A stretch of 64,000 nt of DNA, taken from NCBI GenBank assembly GCA_964016885.1, contig CAXHJY010000180.1, positions 1-64,000 of the forward strand. The letters are read 5' to 3'. Under the pieces are notes generated by a model. The model was not told the origin of the DNA. It saw nothing but the letters and a program-made list of their open reading frames with translations, and did not search any database. The stretch comes from Eledone cirrhosa (Eukaryota). Shown in pieces: positions 1,731 to 63,424 of this stretch. Each line of letters starts with the position of its first letter. The first letter of the stretch is position 1. The position numbers and the translations under genes are program-made.

Positions 1731-1826
1731 ATATTATGTATACTCCAGTCCTACAAACTGTAGAGTGCTTCTTTCCGATATCTGCATTGCTTTAATGTAC
1801 TACAATAAAACTCACCTCCTACATTA

Positions 1827-4532
<2,706 letters not shown>

Positions 4533-4723
4533 GTAGATAAATCTACCAAGAGTTTACGGTAGTGTCCAATCCGTATGAAGAACTCAATGTATTCCGGATA
4601 TCATGGAAAGAAGAGATGTAATGAAAAACCACTTTCGGTGAAAGATAAACGGTATACAGAGTCAAGATAAAATATTAAACAAATAATATTAAACAAATAA
4701 TATTTCAAATATTAAACAAATAA

Positions 4724-4870
4724 TATTTCTGAAGACGGCGTATATATGTGTTTGGTATGTATATTTAATCTTGATAATTTGTATAATTTTGTATAATTTT
4801 GTACATAGATCTGTTGAATATGCATACCAATACTATCACACATATATATCCTAGAAACGATCGTTAAATA
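4724..4870 (+). ncRNA. Type I hammerhead ribozyme with a long stem II, within a probable PLE tail fragment (4533-4925)
   Basis: TATTT-CTGAAGA (4729-4735), a ~118-nt hairpin, then GAAAC-GATC-GTT|AAATA. Stem I is TATTT/AAATA and stem III is the palindrome AACGATCGTT. Confidence 0.65.
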
Positions 4871-4925
4871 ATGAACTTTTTTTGTTTAATATAAGGAATT
4901 GTTTATTCATTATTTGTTTAATATT

Positions 4926-4993
4926 TTATACATATATATATATATACATATATATATACATATACATATATATATATACATATATATATATAC

Positions 4994-5028
<35 letters not shown>

Positions 5029-5075
5029 CATATATATATACATATACATATATATATATACATATATATATATAC

Positions 5076-5106
<31 letters not shown>

Positions 5107-5125
5107 CATATATATATACATATAC

Positions 5126-5208
<83 letters not shown>

Positions 5209-5487
5209 CATATATATATACATATACATATATACATATATATATATATACATATATATATACATATACATATATATATACATATATATATACATATATA
5301 TATATATATACATATATATATACATATATATATACATATATATATACATATATATATACATATATATATACATATATATATACATATATATATTCATATA
5401 TATATACATATATATATACATATACATATATATATACATACATATATATATACATACATATATACATACATATATATATATACATAT
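4926..5487. repeat. (TA)n/TACA microsatellite
   Basis: Read directly from the sequence. Confidence 0.98.
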
Positions 5488-7582
5488 GCAAAAAGTGTGT
5501 CCCGGAGAAAGAGGCAAACAGACACAAAAATCTTATTCCCAGAGATAGGAAAATCCTTATGAGACGTAGAACTAAACTCTCAAACCAGTTGAATAGTCAA
5601 CAAAACAAAAACAAGAAGGAATTCTATTTGAAACGTGCACTACTTGACACCGAGATTGCACTCAAACTTTCACATGAGAATGAGAGGGCAAAGCAAGAGA
5701 ACAGGGCCATAGAAAACATTAAAACAAACCCTAAGGCCTTCTTTAAATTTGCAAAAGAAACTGCCTCAGTACACTGCAAGATTGGGCCACTCTTCCACAC
5801 GGACGGTTCATTAACCGAAAATCCCCAAGAGATATGTGAAATACTGAACGAACAGTACAAAAGTGTCTTCACATGTCCACTGAGGCACATGCAAATAACG
5901 AAGCCAGAGGAGTTCTTTGATGCCACAACACTACATCAAAAAATGGCAACCATCAACCACATAGACATAACGGAGGAGAATGTGGTGTACGCCATTGATG
6001 AAATTAGAACAGACTCGGCTGTTGGACCTGATGGATTCCCAGCAGTTCTCCTAAAATATGTAAGCGGGCCTTAGCAACTCCACTGAAGATGCTCTTCAGA
6101 AGCTCCTTGGCTAGCGGTGTACTACCCAGGGAGCTGAAAGAAGGCACAATATGCCCTATCCATAAAGGAGGTAGTAGAGCGGAGGCCAAGAACTATAGGC
6201 CAGTCTCTCTGACGTCGCATATTAGTAAGGTCATGGAGCGAGTCGTCAGAAAGAAACTAATCACTTTCCTCGAAGAAAATGACCGCCTGACTAGCACGCA
6301 ACATGGCTTCCGCCCAGGAAGAAGCTGCCTTACACAGCTTCTACATCACTACGACTGGGTACTGAGACAACTACTAGACAGCTCACATGTGGACGTGATA
6401 TATCTTGACTTTGCGAAGGCCTTTGACAAGGTCGACCACGGAATGATATGTCACAAACTACACGGACTCGGCATAACTGGAAAAGTAGGTGAGTGGCTGC
6501 ATGGCTTCCTAGGGGACAGAAGCCAGGCAGTTGCAGCAAATGTGGCCCTCTCGAGGGAAACACCGATAACAAGTGGGGTGCCCCAGGGGACAGTCCTGGG
6601 ACCACTACTGTTTCTGGCGGCACTCTCGGACATGCCCTCTGTGGTGCATGCAACAACATCCCTCACTAGCTATGCTGATGACACTAAGGTAGCACAGGCA
6701 ATCAAAAACCCGGCTGACGCTGCCCTTTTACAGCAGGATCTGGATGCCATATACAGATGGGCGGAAGAAAACAACATGCAGTTTAATGCTGGCAAATTCC
6801 AAGCCCTACAATACAAACCTGCAAACACAAATATAGTGGAACACAGCTACACAGGACCAGGAGGGACCGATATCCCCGTGTCAAAATCGATACGAGACCT
6901 GGGCATAGACATGAGCGATGATGCATCTTTTTCTTCACACATCATGAAAGTGGCGACAACGTGCAGACGACTCGCTGGCTGGATCTTGAGGACTTTCCGG
7001 ACAAGAGATCGAGACACCATGTTGACACTGTGGAGGACTTTTGTCCTAAGCCGCCTGGACTACTGCTCCCAGTTGTGGTCACCCCATAGTGTCAAACTAA
7101 CCACGGAGTTTGAGGCAGTCCAGCGAAGCTACACCAAGAGGATTGCCAAGATGAGGGAGACAAGCTACTGGGAGAGGCTAAAGGAACTGAACCTCTACTC
7201 CTTGGAGCGAAGACGGGAGAAATACGCAGTGATCTACATTTGGAAAATCCTGGAGGGACTAGCACCAAACTTTGGTATTGGGAGCTGGACCAACCGTCGA
7301 ACAGGACGCCACTGTGTGGTGCCAAAGGTCCCGTCTTCCACATCTAGAATAAGGAACAGGTATTGCAATAGCCTGGGATTCAAGGGCCCTCAACTCTTCA
7401 ACAGGCTGCCGAGGCATCTGAGAGACTTTCATGACGTGGAGGTGGATGTCTTTAAGAAACATCTCGACACCTTGTTATCCAGGATCCCGGATGGGCCCAC
7501 AGCAAGACACGAGGGAAACCTAAGGGCAGCAGCAACAAACTCCCTCCTACACCAGTGGCCAACCTATACAGGCTGGAGATAA
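5488..7582 (+). pseudogene. LINE ORF2 reverse transcriptase, one frameshift near 6058
   Basis: [12 protein letters not shown]...[13 protein letters not shown] in one frame continues as [17 protein letters not shown]... in ORF 6089-7582. Confidence 0.88.
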
Positions 7583-8487: not shown

Positions 8488-8569
8488 AAGGAGGAGGTTA
8501 TAGTTCACTTGAAGCATTGTGTAATGAGGTATAAACGTTAGAATATGTGTAATAAGGCCAGGATTACCC

Positions 8570-9577
8570 ATGGGATCCAGCCTCTCTGGCCTGCTGGCCA
8601 TCACTTACATGAACCAGCTAGAATGCCGAGCCCTCAACACCTGCCATTCCCATGCCTTCTTCACCCGATATGTAGATGACATACTCATCCTTACATCATC
8701 CCGTGAAGAGGCAGAGAAAATATACACAACATTCTCCAGCATGGACGCCAGTATAAAGTTCAGCATAGAACACCCCGATGACCGCGGATCCCTATCCCTG
8801 CTGGACTTCCAACTCAGGGTAACAGAGGAAGGCAACATCCACACCTGCTTCTATAAAAAATCCGCCAGCAGGGACCTGTTCGTACATTTCAGATCGGCCC
8901 TCCCACTCGGTGCCAAGTTCGGATACATAAAGAACGAACTGGCACGTATCAAGAACAAATGCACCGACGCCAGAGACCGAGACACACACACCACACATTT
9001 CCTGGAAGTACTCAAACTGAACGGATACACGACATCCACCAGAAACCGTGCCAGAAAGAACAGAGGACACCACACCCGAGGCACTAACACTTGCTTCCTG
9101 AAGCTCCCACACTTCAGTGAAGAAACAACAACAGCCATCCGCAGAGCCATCAGACGAGAAGGTCTGGATATTCAACTGGCCCATTCGGGTCCTTCTTTGC
9201 GTGGACGGCTAGTTAAGAGACACTCCAACAGACATGACAACTGCTGCAGACTAGCCAACTGCCCCATCAACGACACAGACCTATGCCACCAGGCTTACGT
9301 AGTTTACAGACTAGAGTGTGACAAATGCAACAACTTCTACGTAGGTAGCACCACCAGACCACTCCACATAAGAATAAAAGAACACCTCAATACTAACGCT
9401 TCCTCATTTAAGAAACACCTAGTTAAATGCAAAAACACTGATAAAAACATAACAGTTAGGATAGAAACTAAAGAAAAAAACCTCGGTAATCTTAGAATCA
9501 AGGAAGCACTCATTATAGATAGAACACATCCACCAATCAATAATAGACTAGAGCTCAACACCCAATTTATAACCTGA
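8570..9577 (+). CDS. Penelope RT C-terminal half plus GIY-YIG endonuclease (uninterrupted but N-truncated)
   Basis: (GLP)[21 protein letters not shown], and [29 protein letters not shown]...KEALII...IN. Confidence 0.9.
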
Positions 9578-9954
9578 TAGGGCCTCTAGCCCCACTTTAC
9601 ACACCCCACACACACGCACGCACACACCTCCACTTATTCTCTCTCACACATACACACACAAAACCAGTTCTAACACCAGATAACACCTACCCCCCCACTT
9701 TTACGATTAGACCTATCTTCCCACACTCACACACACACATACCTACACCTTCATGCTTTCTCCCACACACATATACAGGCACGCATATAAAATTTAAAAA
9801 ACACAACAAAAACATAAACAAACCCCTCTTAAAGGGAGACTACTCTTTACCCACCTAATTTTAATTCTTTGATATTAAAGTTAGAACTCTATACTATTTC
9901 CGGTCAGCATGGCTTCATTGGAAATTTAAGACGCTGGTCTGAGACTTTTACTTC

Positions 9955-9989
9955 CCTCCGAAGAAGAGATATTATCTCGAAAATTAAGG
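9955..9989 (+). ncRNA. Minimal hammerhead ribozyme, U4->C core variant
   Basis: CCT-CCGAAGA-A-GAGAT att ATCTC-GAAA-AT-TA|AGG. Confidence 0.55.
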
Positions 9990-10106
9990 ACATTTAAATA
10001 AATTCAAGGTGAAAGACGAATTCTCATCAATATCTCTCACTATTGCATTCTTTTTTCTATGTCCATATCTGCATTGTCTTGGCCTTATTACACATATTCT
10101 AACGTT

Positions 10107-18272
<8,166 letters not shown>

Positions 18273-28673: not shown

Positions 28674-29950
28674 CCCTTGCCCTGGCCCAACTCTCACCAA
28701 AATGGAGCGCCTCCTCTTCCGCTTTTTGTGGAAGGGACGCACTCCCATGGTCAGACGATCCATCTGCTGTCAACACCCATTGCGTGGAGGACTGAGCATG
28801 CCATGGCTTGATGCGCAAACATGCGCTGAGGTTGCGACATCTTTGGTGCTTCCTTGACGGTGAACAGGTGTGGTAGCCGTTCGCCAGTCACGTTTTCCCA
28901 CAGCTCGTCTCCTTGACGAAGCTGCAGTCCTGGGGCAGGAAAAGACCGAGGGATAGCGCTTGGAAACTGGAATGTCTCCAGGCGATCACTGCCCTATGCC
29001 AGCTGGGCACCAGTATCGGTGGAACATCCACCTCGGCATTTTATAGAGGACTAGTGGAGGGGAAGAGCGACGTCGTTCTCGGAGAGATCCTGGGCGTCGA
29101 AGAAGATCAGCTGTTTGCTCTCTTCCGGAGAACTTTCAGCCCAGGGCCTATGGATAACTTCCAAAAATCCCTGGTCTGGCAGCGCTACCGGGGAGCGTTG
29201 CCGGTTCGAGATAAACTCTACAGGCACGGAAGTGCCGTCAGCCGAGCCTGTCCGAAATGCACGCAGAGCGACGAAACCGTCGTGCACGCACTCGTTCAGT
29301 GCCCGAGCATTGCTGACTTGTGGGGCTATGTCAAACAGTTGCTGTCGCGTGTAGGACTGATCCGGTTATCGCCTGAGTCCATTGTGCAGATGGTCTCGCC
29401 GTCTTCCTTCGAGGAGGAAGGGCAGGCGATTTTTATCTGCCTGGTGGCCATGGCGAAAGAGATTGTGTGGTGGACAAGGTTGAAAGGGTTAAGGACAGAT
29501 ACTTTCCTCTTCGGCGAATCCCTAATTAACTTTTTCAAGTTTCACTTGAAGAGGAAAATCAGGGTGGAGAGGCAAGTGCTGCCTTCTAACAAGCTTGTTG
29601 AAAGGTGGGTGAATGTAGCGAGAATGATTCGAGTGAACGGGACCTATCTGAATATACGCCTGTAGTTTGAGAAATGGAGAAATTGAGAGGGCGCTTGCCC
29701 TGGTGGTCAGGGTGGCCGTGGTCTTTTGTGTGGTTTTCGCCACGAGTAACCCTCGGAGGTTTCCCCCCTATTGGGGAATTTTTCATTATTTCAATTTTCA
29801 TTTTTATTGTTTATATATATGTTTCTATGTCTTTTTTTTCCTTTTTTATATAAATAATAAAAAATCTCTACACGCACAAAACCCACATCGTACCGTCCTG
29901 TGCCGTCTGTAATGGTTTTCTTGATGTCAGCCCTTGTGGCCAATAAAGAA
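28672..29950 (+). mobile_element. 5'-truncated L1/Tx1 3' end inserted in (ATT)n
   Basis: LFRFLWKG and the zf-RVT/CCHC region ALPVRDKL...CPKCTQSDETVVHALVQC (ORF 28913-29665). The 3' UTR ends GGCCAATAAAG. ATT repeats lie on both sides. Confidence 0.85.
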
Positions 29951-33900: not shown

Positions 33901-34225
33901 CGAACGAAATAACTAATATTTATTAAAATAATTCCTGTCCTCACGAAGAGACATCATTACTACCACAAATTCCTTCAGCTCATAAAAATGTAAATCTCAA
34001 TTTATCTACCTTCCTTTTTGTTGTTATTATTGTTGTTTAGCACTAAGTCAAGGAAACCTGTAATCGAAAGCCTTTTATCAGGAAGTATGCTGGTCAATTA
34101 TTTCCAGAAAAAGGCATCTAGATTTTCTAAAGTGTCATTCATTTTAAAACAAAGAATTATTTAAGGGAGATTTGGCTCAAGCTTTTTTTCTTATTTAATA
34201 ACGTATTGTTATTAATAGAACAAGG

Positions 34226-34409
34226 GCGGTGGATTGGCAGTATCGGTAGAGGGTCGGACGCCATGCTTTCCAGCATAGTTACGTCCCTTTTACGATCTGA
34301 GTTCAAATCCCGCCGAGGTTGACTTTGCCTTTCATCCTTACGGGGTCGATAAAATAAAGTACCAGTAATGCACTGGATAATTGCTGGCCTTGTGCCAAAA
34401 GTAGAAACA
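34226..34409 (+). mobile_element. Full-length young tRNA-derived SINE with an 18-bp TSD
   Basis: A box TGGCAGTATCGG and B box GAGTTCAAATCC. TSD GTTATTAATAGAACAAGG at 34208-34225 and 34410-34427. Confidence 0.93.
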
Positions 34410-35654
34410 GTTATTAATAGAACAAGGAATAAATGAAACCAATACATATAGAAGAAATATGAATAATTTAATATCTGTAAAATGCTTGAATTGTGTAAAA
34501 GGCACTTAACTCCAGGTTAACCCTGATCGATCAGACCTATTATCAAAGGCGTTCCGACCGTGATTATCGTAATTCTTATGCATAGTTTATTAGAACCATT
34601 ATATCTAATTTCTTTCATTTTAAAAGACAATAGGACATGAAATTTGAAGAGGATTTAGCTGCTACTTCTAGCAAATCGATAAACCACAAACAGGATCTCT
34701 TGTTGACTCGCTATGGTTTGTGTATTTTTTGTAAGTAGAATATCTCGTGAAAAGATGCAAATTTCTAGCAGTGACAGGCAAACAAATATATCACAAAACT
34801 TAGGTGAAATACATCTGTAGAGATTGGATACTTGTGAACAATTCGTCAAAGAAAAATCGATCTTATTTACAAATAATTGACAGTTGGTGAGAGCCTATCA
34901 CAACAACAAACAAAAGCGTTTCACAAGATTGTCTTTCCTTCTGGGTAGACATAAAAACTATCATGCAAACAATAACCAGCTTTTTTATTCTTCGTGTGTG
35001 TGGAGATTAATCTCTAACAGAATAGTCTTTACTCTACCGCCGTTAAGCAATTGCTTTCGAGAGGCGAAGTTAGCACAGACTGTTTTATACTACCACTCCC
35101 TGTCAAATACTTCACAGCAAGACTACGAGGATGTAATTTACGAACGGATATCTTTAAAAATGCAGTTGTTTGTTAATGGCCATGTAATGCACCCATATAA
35201 AGAGATCACAATTTGTTGTCAAAAGAATATTTTCTGTGTAGATTTAAGAATTTTGAATTTCCTGTCAAAGTAAAAGTAAAAGTAATAATATTCTATTACT
35301 GCTTAAAATAATTGGAGAGGTTATATTTCAAAAAAAGATTAGAGAAAACACATCCTATTTTCCATTCCATGTTTTAAAAAACATCACGTGAAATAATTGA
35401 TTTCCTATTAATATCTATAAGTTATCCTGTTTGTATCTGTAGTATCAGCATTGTTGACGCTAATGTCAGTGTATTCTGATTCAGTAAGTTTTATGTATAA
35501 AACAAACCTTGAGTTACGTAAACAAAATATATTGAGCTTGAGCCAACTTATGCAGCTTCATATGCAAATGAGATTAATCACCTCACTTCCACAGACGAGA
35601 AAAGTATATTTTCTCGCCTGTCTTCTAGTCCAGCAGTCGCAAGCGGTGGGAGGG

Positions 35655-35698
35655 ACCGTCCTGACGAAGGCCAGTTAAGCCTGAAATGCATAAACGGT
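35655..35698 (+). ncRNA. Type I hammerhead ribozyme, copy 1
   Basis: ACCGTC-CTGACGA-AGGC cagttaa GCCT-GAAA-TGCA-TA|AACGGT. Confidence 0.85.
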
Positions 35699-35950
35699 TG
35701 TCCCCCTTGCTTCTGATGGACATCAGTGTTTGCATAGCTACGGCTTCCTAAAACCGTATTTCCTTGGAGATATTTATACATATTGTATAAAGCTATGCTT
35801 GAAGCGAAATCCTATTTCTTTTTTATTACAAGTTGAGCCAACTTATGCAGCTTCATATGCAAATGAGATTAATCACCTCATTTACACAGACGAAAAAAAG
35901 TATATTTTCTCGCCTGTCTTCTAGTCCAGCAGGCGCAAGCGGTGGGAGGG

Positions 35951-35994
35951 ACTCTCCTGACGAAGGCCAGTTAAGCCTGAAATGCATAGACGGT
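35951..35994 (+). ncRNA. Type I hammerhead ribozyme, copy 2
   Basis: ACTCTC-CTGACGA-AGGC cagttaa GCCT-GAAA-TGCA-TA|GACGGT. Confidence 0.85.
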
Positions 35995-37149
35995 TGTCTC
36001 CTTTGCTTCTGATGGACATCACCAGAGGGCGTTAGCCCCCGGTGTTTGCATAGCTACGGCTTCCTAAAACCGTATTTCCTTGGAGATACGAAATATTTAT
36101 ACATATTGTATAAAGCTATGCTTGAAGCGAAATCCTATTTCTTTTTGAGCTATTGTCTGTTTAATATATAGAAAGAGAATTAGAAATTTCTCTCAGTATG
36201 TGTTATAAAAGCCTGAAAGTAAACTATTTGATTGTGCTATCAACTTAACAAAGCGAATATTAATTCTAGGTTTCGGTATTGAGAAAACTAAAAATTAAAA
36301 ATAGTTTTTATATTTAAATTGAATATAATCAATTACACATCTTACCCAATTAAATTTAGGTTCTGTATTTCCTCAATTCACTGTTCATCCAGACGTTGGA
36401 AATATAAAACTGAGAATCTTATCTCTGATGAAAATAGAAATGATGAGAAGTTGAAAAAAAAATCAATCATCCTGCAGACAATCAGTTTGACATTCTGACA
36501 CAATAAAGTGATCTGGTGCACGCTCAGAGGCACAGTAAGTAACGCAACCTTATAACAGAGCCAGTGATAAAAAGTATGCTTGCATTAACCCAGATCCTAC
36601 AGCAGGCATGTTATGAATAGTGTTGAAAATAATGTAATGGTATATCATGAATGTATCGTTGTATGTGATTCACGAAATGTCATTACATGTCCGTTCGTTA
36701 TACTTTGACGAAAAGGCGGACAAAAGTGAATACAAAAAACGAATACATTTGTTTGTTTAAAATAGAGTTATTTATTTCGTCAAATATTGGATTTGAAACT
36801 ACGTTCATATCTTTCGATAATTTGTGAAAATCATAGAGTTAACAATAAGAGAATCATGATATGAAAGAAAGACAGATAGGCTAATGATATAAGTGAGTAA
36901 GTGAATATCATGAAAATCTGTGAGAGTCACTAACCCGCGGCCAAGCCAGCAGTTGGCCAAGGCAACTGCTTCTATAAAGATGTGCGACCAACTGAGGGTT
37001 AGCTAGCTACCAGCACTGCCTTTTACCTTAAAAGGAAATACACTGGGTTTTTTGGTAAATATTGCAGGTTTTGCACAAAAATTCATAAATATTAATATGC
37101 CTATGGGACAGCGAAATGTCTGAGTCGCAAGAACGTCGGATAGAATGCT

Positions 37150-38429: not shown

Positions 38430-39510
38430 ACCATACAGGAGTTAGACACAGAAGGTAGCTATAAATATCTTGGCAAAAAACTAAAGTCTGGTAATTAAAC
38501 ATAATCAAATAAAGGAGAAAATTCGGAAAGACGACTAGAGAAGAGTAAGGCTGATCCTGAAAACTGAACTAAATTCTAAAAACCGTTTCGAGACTATAAA
38601 CACTTTCGCTGTACCGTTGGTACAATACAGTTATAACATTATTAATTGTTTCTACTTTTGGCACAAGGCCAGCAATTACCCAGTACATTACTGGTACTTT
38701 ATTTTATCGACCCCGTAAAGATGAAAGGGAAAGTTGACCTCGGCGGAATTTGAACTCAGACCATAAAGGGCCGTAATTCTTCGCTGCAAAGCATGGCGTC
38801 AGACCCTCTACCGATACTGCCAATCCACTACCTTCGTTAATGTTAACTTATCTGATATTTAAAGAATGGATACAACGAATGGAAAGCTCCTTCCACAGAA
38901 GCAATGAAAAATCAGAAGGTCTAAAAATGCAGGATATATGACATATAGCTTGAAACTACTGGTCATATAATTGTTTCTACATTTGGTACAAGGCCAGCAA
39001 TTATCCCAACCCGACATTAGCACCAACTGAATATTCGATTATACATAATAGGGTGGGGCAATACATCCACGGAATAATATGCAAACAATATAATGCAGAA
39101 AACTGGTATGAACACAAACCACAAATAGTAACTGAGACTGAAGGAGTAACAATCCTTTGGGAAATTACCATTTGCACAGATCGTACTATTAATGCAAACC
39201 ACCCTGATATTATAATTAAATATTTTAAAACAAGATCTGCTTACTCATTGATATAACTCTACCGTCTGATAGAAATGTGTCAGCAAAAGAGTATGAAAAA
39301 CTTAAAGATCTTGATATTGAGATAAACAGAATGTCAACCTTAAAAACCAAACTATTCCGGTAGTAATAGGAGCAATAGGTGTCATAAAGAAAGGTCTTCA
39401 AAAGGTTCTAGAAAACATACCTGATAAACCTAGCATCTATAAAATCCGAAAGATAGCTCAAACAAATACCGCCCACAAACTTCGTAAATGCCTCAAAACT
39501 ATCTTATCGA
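38130..39510 (+). mobile_element. Degenerate R4/Dong-like LINE (RT plus RLE) with nested SINEs
   Basis: LSPLLFCL, HLFIMDDL, YKYLG, RRVRLILKTELNSKNRFETINTFAVP, NWYEHKP...TDRTINANHPDII and IPVVIGAIG. Confidence 0.8.
38644..38829 (-). mobile_element. Young SINE nested in the LINE
   Basis: Near full-length match to the 34226-34409 family. Confidence 0.9.
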
Positions 39511-51699: not shown

Positions 51700-51999
51700 A
51701 GGAGGCCGGACTCCAATAACTCCCTTTATTGTTGCATATTATGTATTTCTGTGGCCGAATTAATGATAAGGAGACTGGTGATAACATAGCTAGTTCGGCT
51801 GTCTCCGTATCATTAATTCTTTGATTTTGTTCATATTTTTGCCGAGCCCCAGTGAGGATTACTTAACTAAATTCATTATGTTTATACCATCTGATGAGGT
51901 CGCCGATTGTTTTGTGCAATGGTCTGATGACGTAGATTATTCGGCCACAGGAATATGTATTATGCAACAATTAATAGAGTTATTGGAATCAGGCCTCCT
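51700..51999. repeat. Imperfect inverted repeat (~60-bp arms) enclosing further hairpins
   Basis: 51700-51760 pairs with 51939-51999. Inner hairpin at 51757-51819. Confidence 0.8.
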
Positions 52000-52106
52000 T
52001 TTGTTTTCTATTGAAATACACACACACACACTATATATATATATATATATGCATATATATATATATGTGTGTGAGTGTGTGTGTTTATACATATATATAT
52101 AATAAT

Positions 52107-62666: not shown

Positions 62667-63424
62667 AGAAAATAATTGTTTTTACTTTTACATCGACCCT
62701 AGTGCATTACTGATGCTTTATATTATCGACCCTGTAAGGATGAAAGGCAAAGCTAACCTTGGCAGGATTTGAACTCAGGCGTAAAGGGACTATGTCACAA
62801 AGCATGTTGTCTGACGCTCTACCAATACTGCCAATCTAGAAAATAATTGTTTCTACATTTGGCACAAGGCCAGCAATTATCCCAGTGTATTACTGTTACT
62901 TTATTTTATCGACCCCGTAAGGATGAAAGGCAAAGTTAACCTCGGCGGGATTTGAACTCAGTCCGTAAAGGGATGTAACTGTGCTGAAAAGCATGGCGTC
63001 CGACCCTCTACCGATACTGCCAATCCTAGAAAATAATTGTTTCTATTTTGGGCACAAGGCCAGCAATTACCCAGTACATTACTGGTACTTTATTTTATCG
63101 ACCCCGTAAAGATGAAAGGCAAAGTTAACCTCGGCGGGATTTGAACTCAGACTGTAAAGGAACGTAACTATGCTAGAACGCATGGCGTCCAACCCTCTAC
63201 CGATACTGCCAATTCACCCCACCAGAAAATAATTGTTTCTACTTTAGGCACAAGGCCAGCAATTACCCAGTGCATTACTGGTACTTTATTTTATCGACCC
63301 CGTAAGGATGAAAGGCAAAGTCAACCTTGGCGGGATTTGAACTCAGATCATAAAGGGACGTAACTATGCTGGAAAGCATGGCGTCCGACCCTCTACCGAT
63401 ACTGCCAATCCACCAGAAAATAAT
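62667..63424 (-). mobile_element. Array of four SINEs separated by five AGAAAATAAT repeats
   Basis: The 10-mer occurs at 62667, 62838, 63028, 63224 and 63415. Confidence 0.92.

Follow-up and report, generated by a model that had tools for sequence, protein, structure and literature searches.

A worn two-unit insertion of a non-LTR retrozyme in Eledone cirrhosa, probably placed in trans by a PLE

The window is a stretch of 64,000 nucleotides from Eledone cirrhosa (assembly GCA_964016885.1, contig CAXHJY010000180.1, positions 1 to 64,000 of the forward strand). The locus under study comprises two head-to-tail units (Table 1), each containing CTGACGA (35661 and 35957), a stem II of 4 bp closed by a 7-nt loop, GAAA (35683 and 35979) and the palindrome ATGCAT (35686 and 35982). 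From these positions the predicted cuts fall after 35692 and 35988, 296 nt apart. An earlier note, made from the sequence alone, had described two non-coding tandem units with type I hammerhead cores and these two cuts, and motifs and coordinates agree with it. It had also reported that stem I is imperfect in each copy and that an arm of copy 1 is complementary to one of copy 2; both observations were confirmed, with ACCGTC at 35655, GACGGT at 35989 and one stem I mismatch within each copy itself. The longest ATG-started frame at the locus has 67 codons and the GC content of the unit is 41-43%. Each unit carries ATGCAAAT, which we take to be an octamer motif; together with a TATA-like run it is a possible internal promoter, and the two elements are also present in the older sister families described below. 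The octamer-like motif, a ribozyme, a unit and a second ribozyme all occur in the window locus, a length found in 1 of 119 sampled insertion arms. The TTGAGCT repeats that the earlier note placed on both sides of the dimer were found at 35532 and 36145. They are only a probable target-site duplication because the empty allele was not seen: no joint across the element was identified in three read runs, which come from one sample and are DNA-like.

The remainder of the window contains other repeats. A SINE-like repeat forms an inverted pair at 34219-34418 and 38638-38838, 4.2 kb apart, that flanks the dimer locus, and a 196-nt tandem array of a repeat resembling it is located near the window end (62696-63424). 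A LINE-type RT frame was identified at 6032-7582 and a zf-RVT fragment at 28877-29665. Two very long (TA)n/(TACA)n arrays are present, at 1820-5487 (3.7 kb) and 10107-18272 (8.2 kb), the second beginning at the 3' end of a coding PLE. The weak frame at 51794-52102 is not credible as a gene.

Table 1. Features of the retrozyme dimer locus and of the coding PLE in the window
Feature	Position	Strand	Remarks
Coding PLE, 5'-truncated, in (TA)n	8489..10109	+	RT and C-terminal GIY-YIG, frame 8528-9577
Parts of the coding PLE			minimal hammerhead variant 9958-9986; inverted site-B arm 8489-8559; site-A end near 10109
TTGAGCT, left copy of 7-nt direct repeat	35532..35538	+	probable target-site duplication; overlaps the element's first base
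Unit 1, 295 nt	35538..35832	+	deletions of 20 nt and 7 nt against the family unit
ATGCAAAT, octamer-like motif	35562..35569, again 35857-35864	+	TATA-like run near 35605
Type I hammerhead 1, extended stem I	35628..35721	+	core 35661-35692; C-A mismatch beside the predicted cut (35692)
Predicted 296-nt cut-to-cut monomer	35693..35988	+	predicted circle would unite the two worst stem I arms
14-nt tail motif, unit 1	35795..35808	+	similar to a motif in the coding PLE tail
Unit 2	35833..36146	+	terminates at family 3' site B
Type I hammerhead 2	35924..36017	+	core 35957-35988; predicted cut after 35988; own stem I broken by two private changes
GC-rich hairpin	36020..36044	+	deleted for the most part in unit 1
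40-nt tail	36106..36146	+	site A (about 36106) to site B (about 36146); 14-nt motif at 36118-36131
TTGAGCT, right copy of 7-nt repeat	36145..36151	+	

The family to which the units belong was identified by a DNA search of the organism's own genome (3.0 Gb), which gave 1,844 candidates, 40 of which were scored; the unit is therefore not single-copy. An exact 45-nt pattern had 246 genome matches and an exact 24-nt motif 933 (controls 0 in both cases). Of 104 unselected pieces, 35 have an unbroken 24-nt motif, and 933 matches thus correspond to about 2,800 units. By this estimate the element, of about 323 nt and non-coding, is dispersed in a few thousand copies. The 296 nt that the earlier note had taken as the unit size results from two private deletions in copy 1. 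A core-plus-loop-III pattern had 2,383 genome matches vs 6 with the reversed control, so the hammerhead core pattern is not due to chance; this looser pattern includes older sister families of about 70-78% identity, in which no coding frame was found. The oldest of them has variants with a longer palindromic loop III, such as GCGC. From an ATG in its tail runs an open frame of 47 codons or more, with a faint, not significant likeness to a PLE N-terminus; the frame is possibly, judged by this likeness, a relic of a PLE origin. Three similar dimers lie inside 100 kb (C6:70459884-70553072), which suggests a segmental duplication of one retrozyme dimer.

The hammerhead is of the canonical metazoan type I and not the minimal type I of the earlier note: folding gave about 25 pairs in a long, interrupted stem I (35628-35721 in copy 1), a 4-bp helix II and tetraloop III. 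Rfam gave no hammerhead match on the locus at the gathering threshold or with E up to 10. In the covariation test, run on 25 hand-picked sequences of four subfamily groups whose relatedness inflates the result, 87% of the cells are paired, a level that none of 500 shuffles reached and that compares with 29-46% in slid controls. Double-sided changes number 54; the pairs with double changes were 12, a number reached by 29 of the 500 shuffles. The median divergence from the family majority is 3.7% and the median within one insertion is 4.7%. The copies in the genome decay neutrally, with no slower change in the core than elsewhere.

The insertion footprints were studied in 100 of the 933 matches, the first in the list and all located on the sequence C1, which merge into 82 loci with 145 arms; 26 arms were left out (identity below 80% or other ends). 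The 3' ends of the other 119 fall on two sites separated by 40 nt: 62 arms end at site A (about position 274 of the unit) and 57 at site B (about 314). (TA)n adjoins 90 of the 119 arms vs 332 of 4,100 background flank windows. Tail-out inverted pairs were identified in 34 loci, 31 of which combine one A and one B end (p 4e-7), and the family also shows partial tandem structures. No clear target-site duplication other than (TA)n was found in 30 single-arm loci; the 7-nt repeat of the window locus is a candidate for the duplication of more than 4 bp that metazoan non-LTR retrozymes show when they have one. Known PLE traits are inverted arms, insertion into (TA)n and a tail of 30-40 nt confined to one end (PMC8557442), and the PLE tail sits between two RT start sites, both strands being cut and extended (PMC11167929). 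Since the A and B ends, the (TA)n targets and the A plus B pairs match these traits, mobilisation by a PLE is well supported and, in our judgement, very likely. The copies in the genome and the PLE-type ends also bear out the earlier note where it tied a multicopy tandem type I element of retrozyme size to PLE machinery. Retrozyme insertions were also seen in the (TA)n that trails an older copy of the PLE, and beside an older sister copy; as far as their sequence contexts indicate, the three insert at shared targets.

The nature of the copied template was approached through the arms. Of the arms whose length takes them to the cut site, 92 of 93 cross it: 84 do so once, 7 twice and 1 three times. 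A pile-up of 5' ends at the cut site was rejected, with such an end in 1 of 119 arms only. Diagnostic sites were compared over 126 loci: 21 of 404 differ between repeats of the same arm and 65 of 874 between opposite arms, both near the 5.5% background vs 32% between loci. Different units of an arm show no extra divergence relative to the same unit on opposite arms (428/7,700 vs 674/12,321). The crossing of the cut site and the single-variant repeats therefore indicate a template that is continuous across the cut, with one variant repeated. We lean towards a ligated circle that restores the length every generation, a large share of the probability staying with an uncut concatemer or a template jump.

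The strongest of the rival explanations, unlikely as a whole, is that of a PLE passenger copied from uncut linear concatemers produced by read-through of genomic dimers, with template jumps restoring the length, no circle as intermediate and a ribozyme that merely trims or silences transcripts. Cut-site crossing fits it equally well, and so does within-arm identity, which is equally expected from a young, homogeneous linear donor. For the anole PLE in vitro, uncut RNA was the dominant substrate and the element's own ribozyme was dispensable (PMC11167929), and the 1-bp stem III predicts slow cleavage of the monomer (PMC4209133). Long donor arrays with intact cores are nevertheless absent: adjacent intact core pairs number 49 genome-wide, one of them making a trimer, in a count that took spacings of 284-312 only and that collapsed arrays would escape. 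Linear copying alone shortens arrays, yet 41 of the 119 arms are longer than one unit, and the lineage lasted through several subfamilies with covarying stems. Circles are, moreover, abundant for the mussel and coral retrozymes (PMC7229834).

The candidate driver is the lineage of the coding PLE of the window, whose hammerhead core is CCGAAGA with a palindromic AAUU (CTGAAGA in an older relative). This PLE is very young and high-copy, with 29,973 candidates of which the best 116 are 97-100% identical, and many intact 900-codon frames exist elsewhere in the genome. Its copies end about 120 and about 164 nt past their own ribozyme in 20/46 and 18/46 (some loci overlap). Retrozyme and coding PLE alike have a 14-nt motif between the two sites, at a distance of 12 nt from A and of 14 nt from B, the two versions matching at 12 positions. 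This motif has 4,775 occurrences vs 67, and 28 of 30 inspected places were retrozyme or PLE tails; it is missing in one older PLE copy. In a post hoc alignment of the two tails, none of 5,000 shuffles was better in the global comparison and 21 were in that of the interior; without the register the likeness is weak, with counts of 54 of 5,000 when the tail was extended and 418 of 5,000 for the older family, and two of 45 unrelated PLE windows outscored the coding PLE tail. The driver would be an older PLE subfamily because the youngest, whose copies are 97-99% identical, postdates the retrozyme family, and an older subfamily of the lineage at 8489-10109 is the candidate we favour by a little. 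Another PLE family, with a CX4CxxC linker, has a hammerhead-like core with a palindromic GUAC loop III and, on these sequence features, remains a putative rival driver.

A second rival explanation, which we regard as very improbable, holds that the units are mere 5'-truncated pLTRs of a further coding PLE and that no separate retrozyme exists. The ends of PLE type and the weak likeness of the retrozyme tail to the start of a PLE frame are in keeping with it, as is the clustering of Xenopus retrozymes with pLTRs (10.64898/2026.07.22.740005). What stands upstream of a unit, however, is the tail of the previous unit, an inverted arm or flank. PLE protein matches occur in 6 of 137 retrozyme loci and, by their coordinates, lie apart or inverted, none joined upstream in unit orientation. 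No unit match was found in 45 GIY-YIG loci (of 10,596 candidates) or in 33 loci of the young PLE. An autonomous PLE or its pLTR, the second of which the earlier note had named among the outcomes that would speak against its reading, was rejected in the same way, no RT plus GIY-YIG frame being joined upstream of a unit in the loci screened. The single alternative upstream sequence was considered as a parent PLE and proved to be an older non-coding sister family, and the short-loop hammerheads likewise. The profile of the older family, compared with 14 PLE loci, matched retrozyme insertions only and did not find the PLE itself.

The dimer of the window is ordinary among the members of this family. 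In the family majority sequence stem I is perfect in cis within one unit, and the window variants are rare: 35693A is present in 2 of 202 family pieces, 35953T in 8 of 173 and 35954C in 4 of 173. Their private status is seen likewise in the contigs examined. The stem I mismatches being private decay, the locus is a worn copy, most likely a passive one. Both window copies have one allele that is absent from the other sampled pieces (2/212); as it is common to only these two, they derive from one template or from a local duplication, and they have since diverged at 8 of 249 sites. The third rival, that the two copies form a functional complementary pair in which arms must be swapped to excise a 296-nt circle, is hardly credible: the 5' arm of copy 1 and the 3' arm of copy 2 do form the best 7-bp duplex (-9.2 kcal/mol), loop III is palindromic and the cassette from octamer-like motif to second ribozyme is whole, but the mismatches are private, and when the dimer is folded the swapped helix comes out at probability 0.0 and copy 1 pairs in cis, five of its pairs at 0.9 or more; the reciprocal helix, on which the other cut depends, reaches only -1.1 kcal/mol. 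According to the folding, one predicted cut would be weak whichever stem I arrangement is taken. Some excision may still occur, but the cross-copy match, read in the earlier note as the design of a dimer, is a by-product of decay.

Metazoan non-LTR retrozymes have been described from coral, mussel and axolotl (PMC7229834). The Eledone family shares with them a hammerhead in every unit, canonical and of type I, tandem non-coding units (323 nt here, 150-450 nt there), a GC content below 50%, dispersal in thousands of copies and the presence of PLEs in the genome. Differences are the arrays, up to 62-mers in those retrozymes and here almost only monomers and dimers plus inverted pairs; loop III, here of the amphibian dimer-acting type; and the source of the evidence, which here is genomic sequence. 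The one-pair stem III with a palindromic tetraloop is that of the newt and axolotl satellite hammerheads, a type expected to work as a double hammerhead (PMC7229834, PMC4209133), although the retrozyme is dispersed and not satellite-like. A minimal PLE hammerhead was also rejected: this form has a short helix I with a poor loop 1, no helix III and a long helix II (PMC4209133), and the stem I of about 25 pairs, the 4-bp helix II and the tetraloop III do not fit it.

With EN+ PLEs (PMC8557442; the element PAc, PMC11167929) the family has in common two 3' start sites, a tail of 30-40 nt that only one end bears, inverted arms, partial tandems, insertion into (TA)n and a hammerhead upstream of the starts. 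It differs in the lack of a reading frame and in its long-stem canonical ribozyme, the coding PLE having the minimal form. A 2026 preprint (10.64898/2026.07.22.740005) considers retrozymes to be non-autonomous derivatives of PLEs; its data, from 31 vertebrates, 3 insects and 1 coral, are co-occurrence and a phylogeny of pLTRs. Here too the retrozyme is judged PLE-dependent; the link in this case comes from insertion footprints, and the unit is no recognisable pLTR of the PLEs screened. Octopus or cephalopods are never mentioned in the main text of PMC7229834, nor ribozymes in an Octopus vulgaris repeat paper, and 235 Rfam hammerhead loci are listed, but not analysed, in the giant squid paper. 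No description of such a retrozyme family was found in the literature searched, although the supplements of PMC7229834 and of the preprint might list it. The family is a further metazoan non-LTR retrozyme, with unusually clear genomic evidence for mobilisation by a PLE.

Our preferred explanation is that the window locus is a decayed two-unit insertion of a non-LTR retrozyme, inserted in trans by a PLE and copied from the predicted circle, a reading that we consider probable. Rare insertions with two ribozymes would be transcribed from the putative promoter, and the hammerheads would cut the transcript, probably aided by pairing of the palindromic loop III between two copies. Dimers of Xenopus retrozymes were not cleaved in 8 of 9 cases (10.64898/2026.07.22.740005). 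The monomer would then be closed by a host ligase. A PLE protein would bind the 40-nt tail, nick both strands of a (TA)n target and prime them at different sites, one at A and one at B, and its RT, going round the template, would produce the partial tandems and the tail-out pairs.

A more specific version, which we put forward as doubtful, is that the cut circle of 323 nt has kept, or imitates, a 40-nt tail belonging to one PLE lineage, and that the protein of this lineage starts on the two nicked target strands at two fixed points of the circle and rolls round it. If true, a retrozyme and its PLE would for the first time be matched as a pair, rolling-circle target-primed reverse transcription would have a minimal substrate, and a circular origin would be suggested for the partial tandems of PLEs in general. 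The enzyme and the circular template of retrozymes have so far been proposed and not demonstrated (PMC7229834; 10.64898/2026.07.22.740005). The window locus itself is ordinary; its family offers exact start sites, insertion footprints that can be counted and a candidate protein encoded by intact 900-codon copies in the same genome, and these footprints make the proposed retrozyme-PLE cycle testable in the existing in vitro assay for PLEs.
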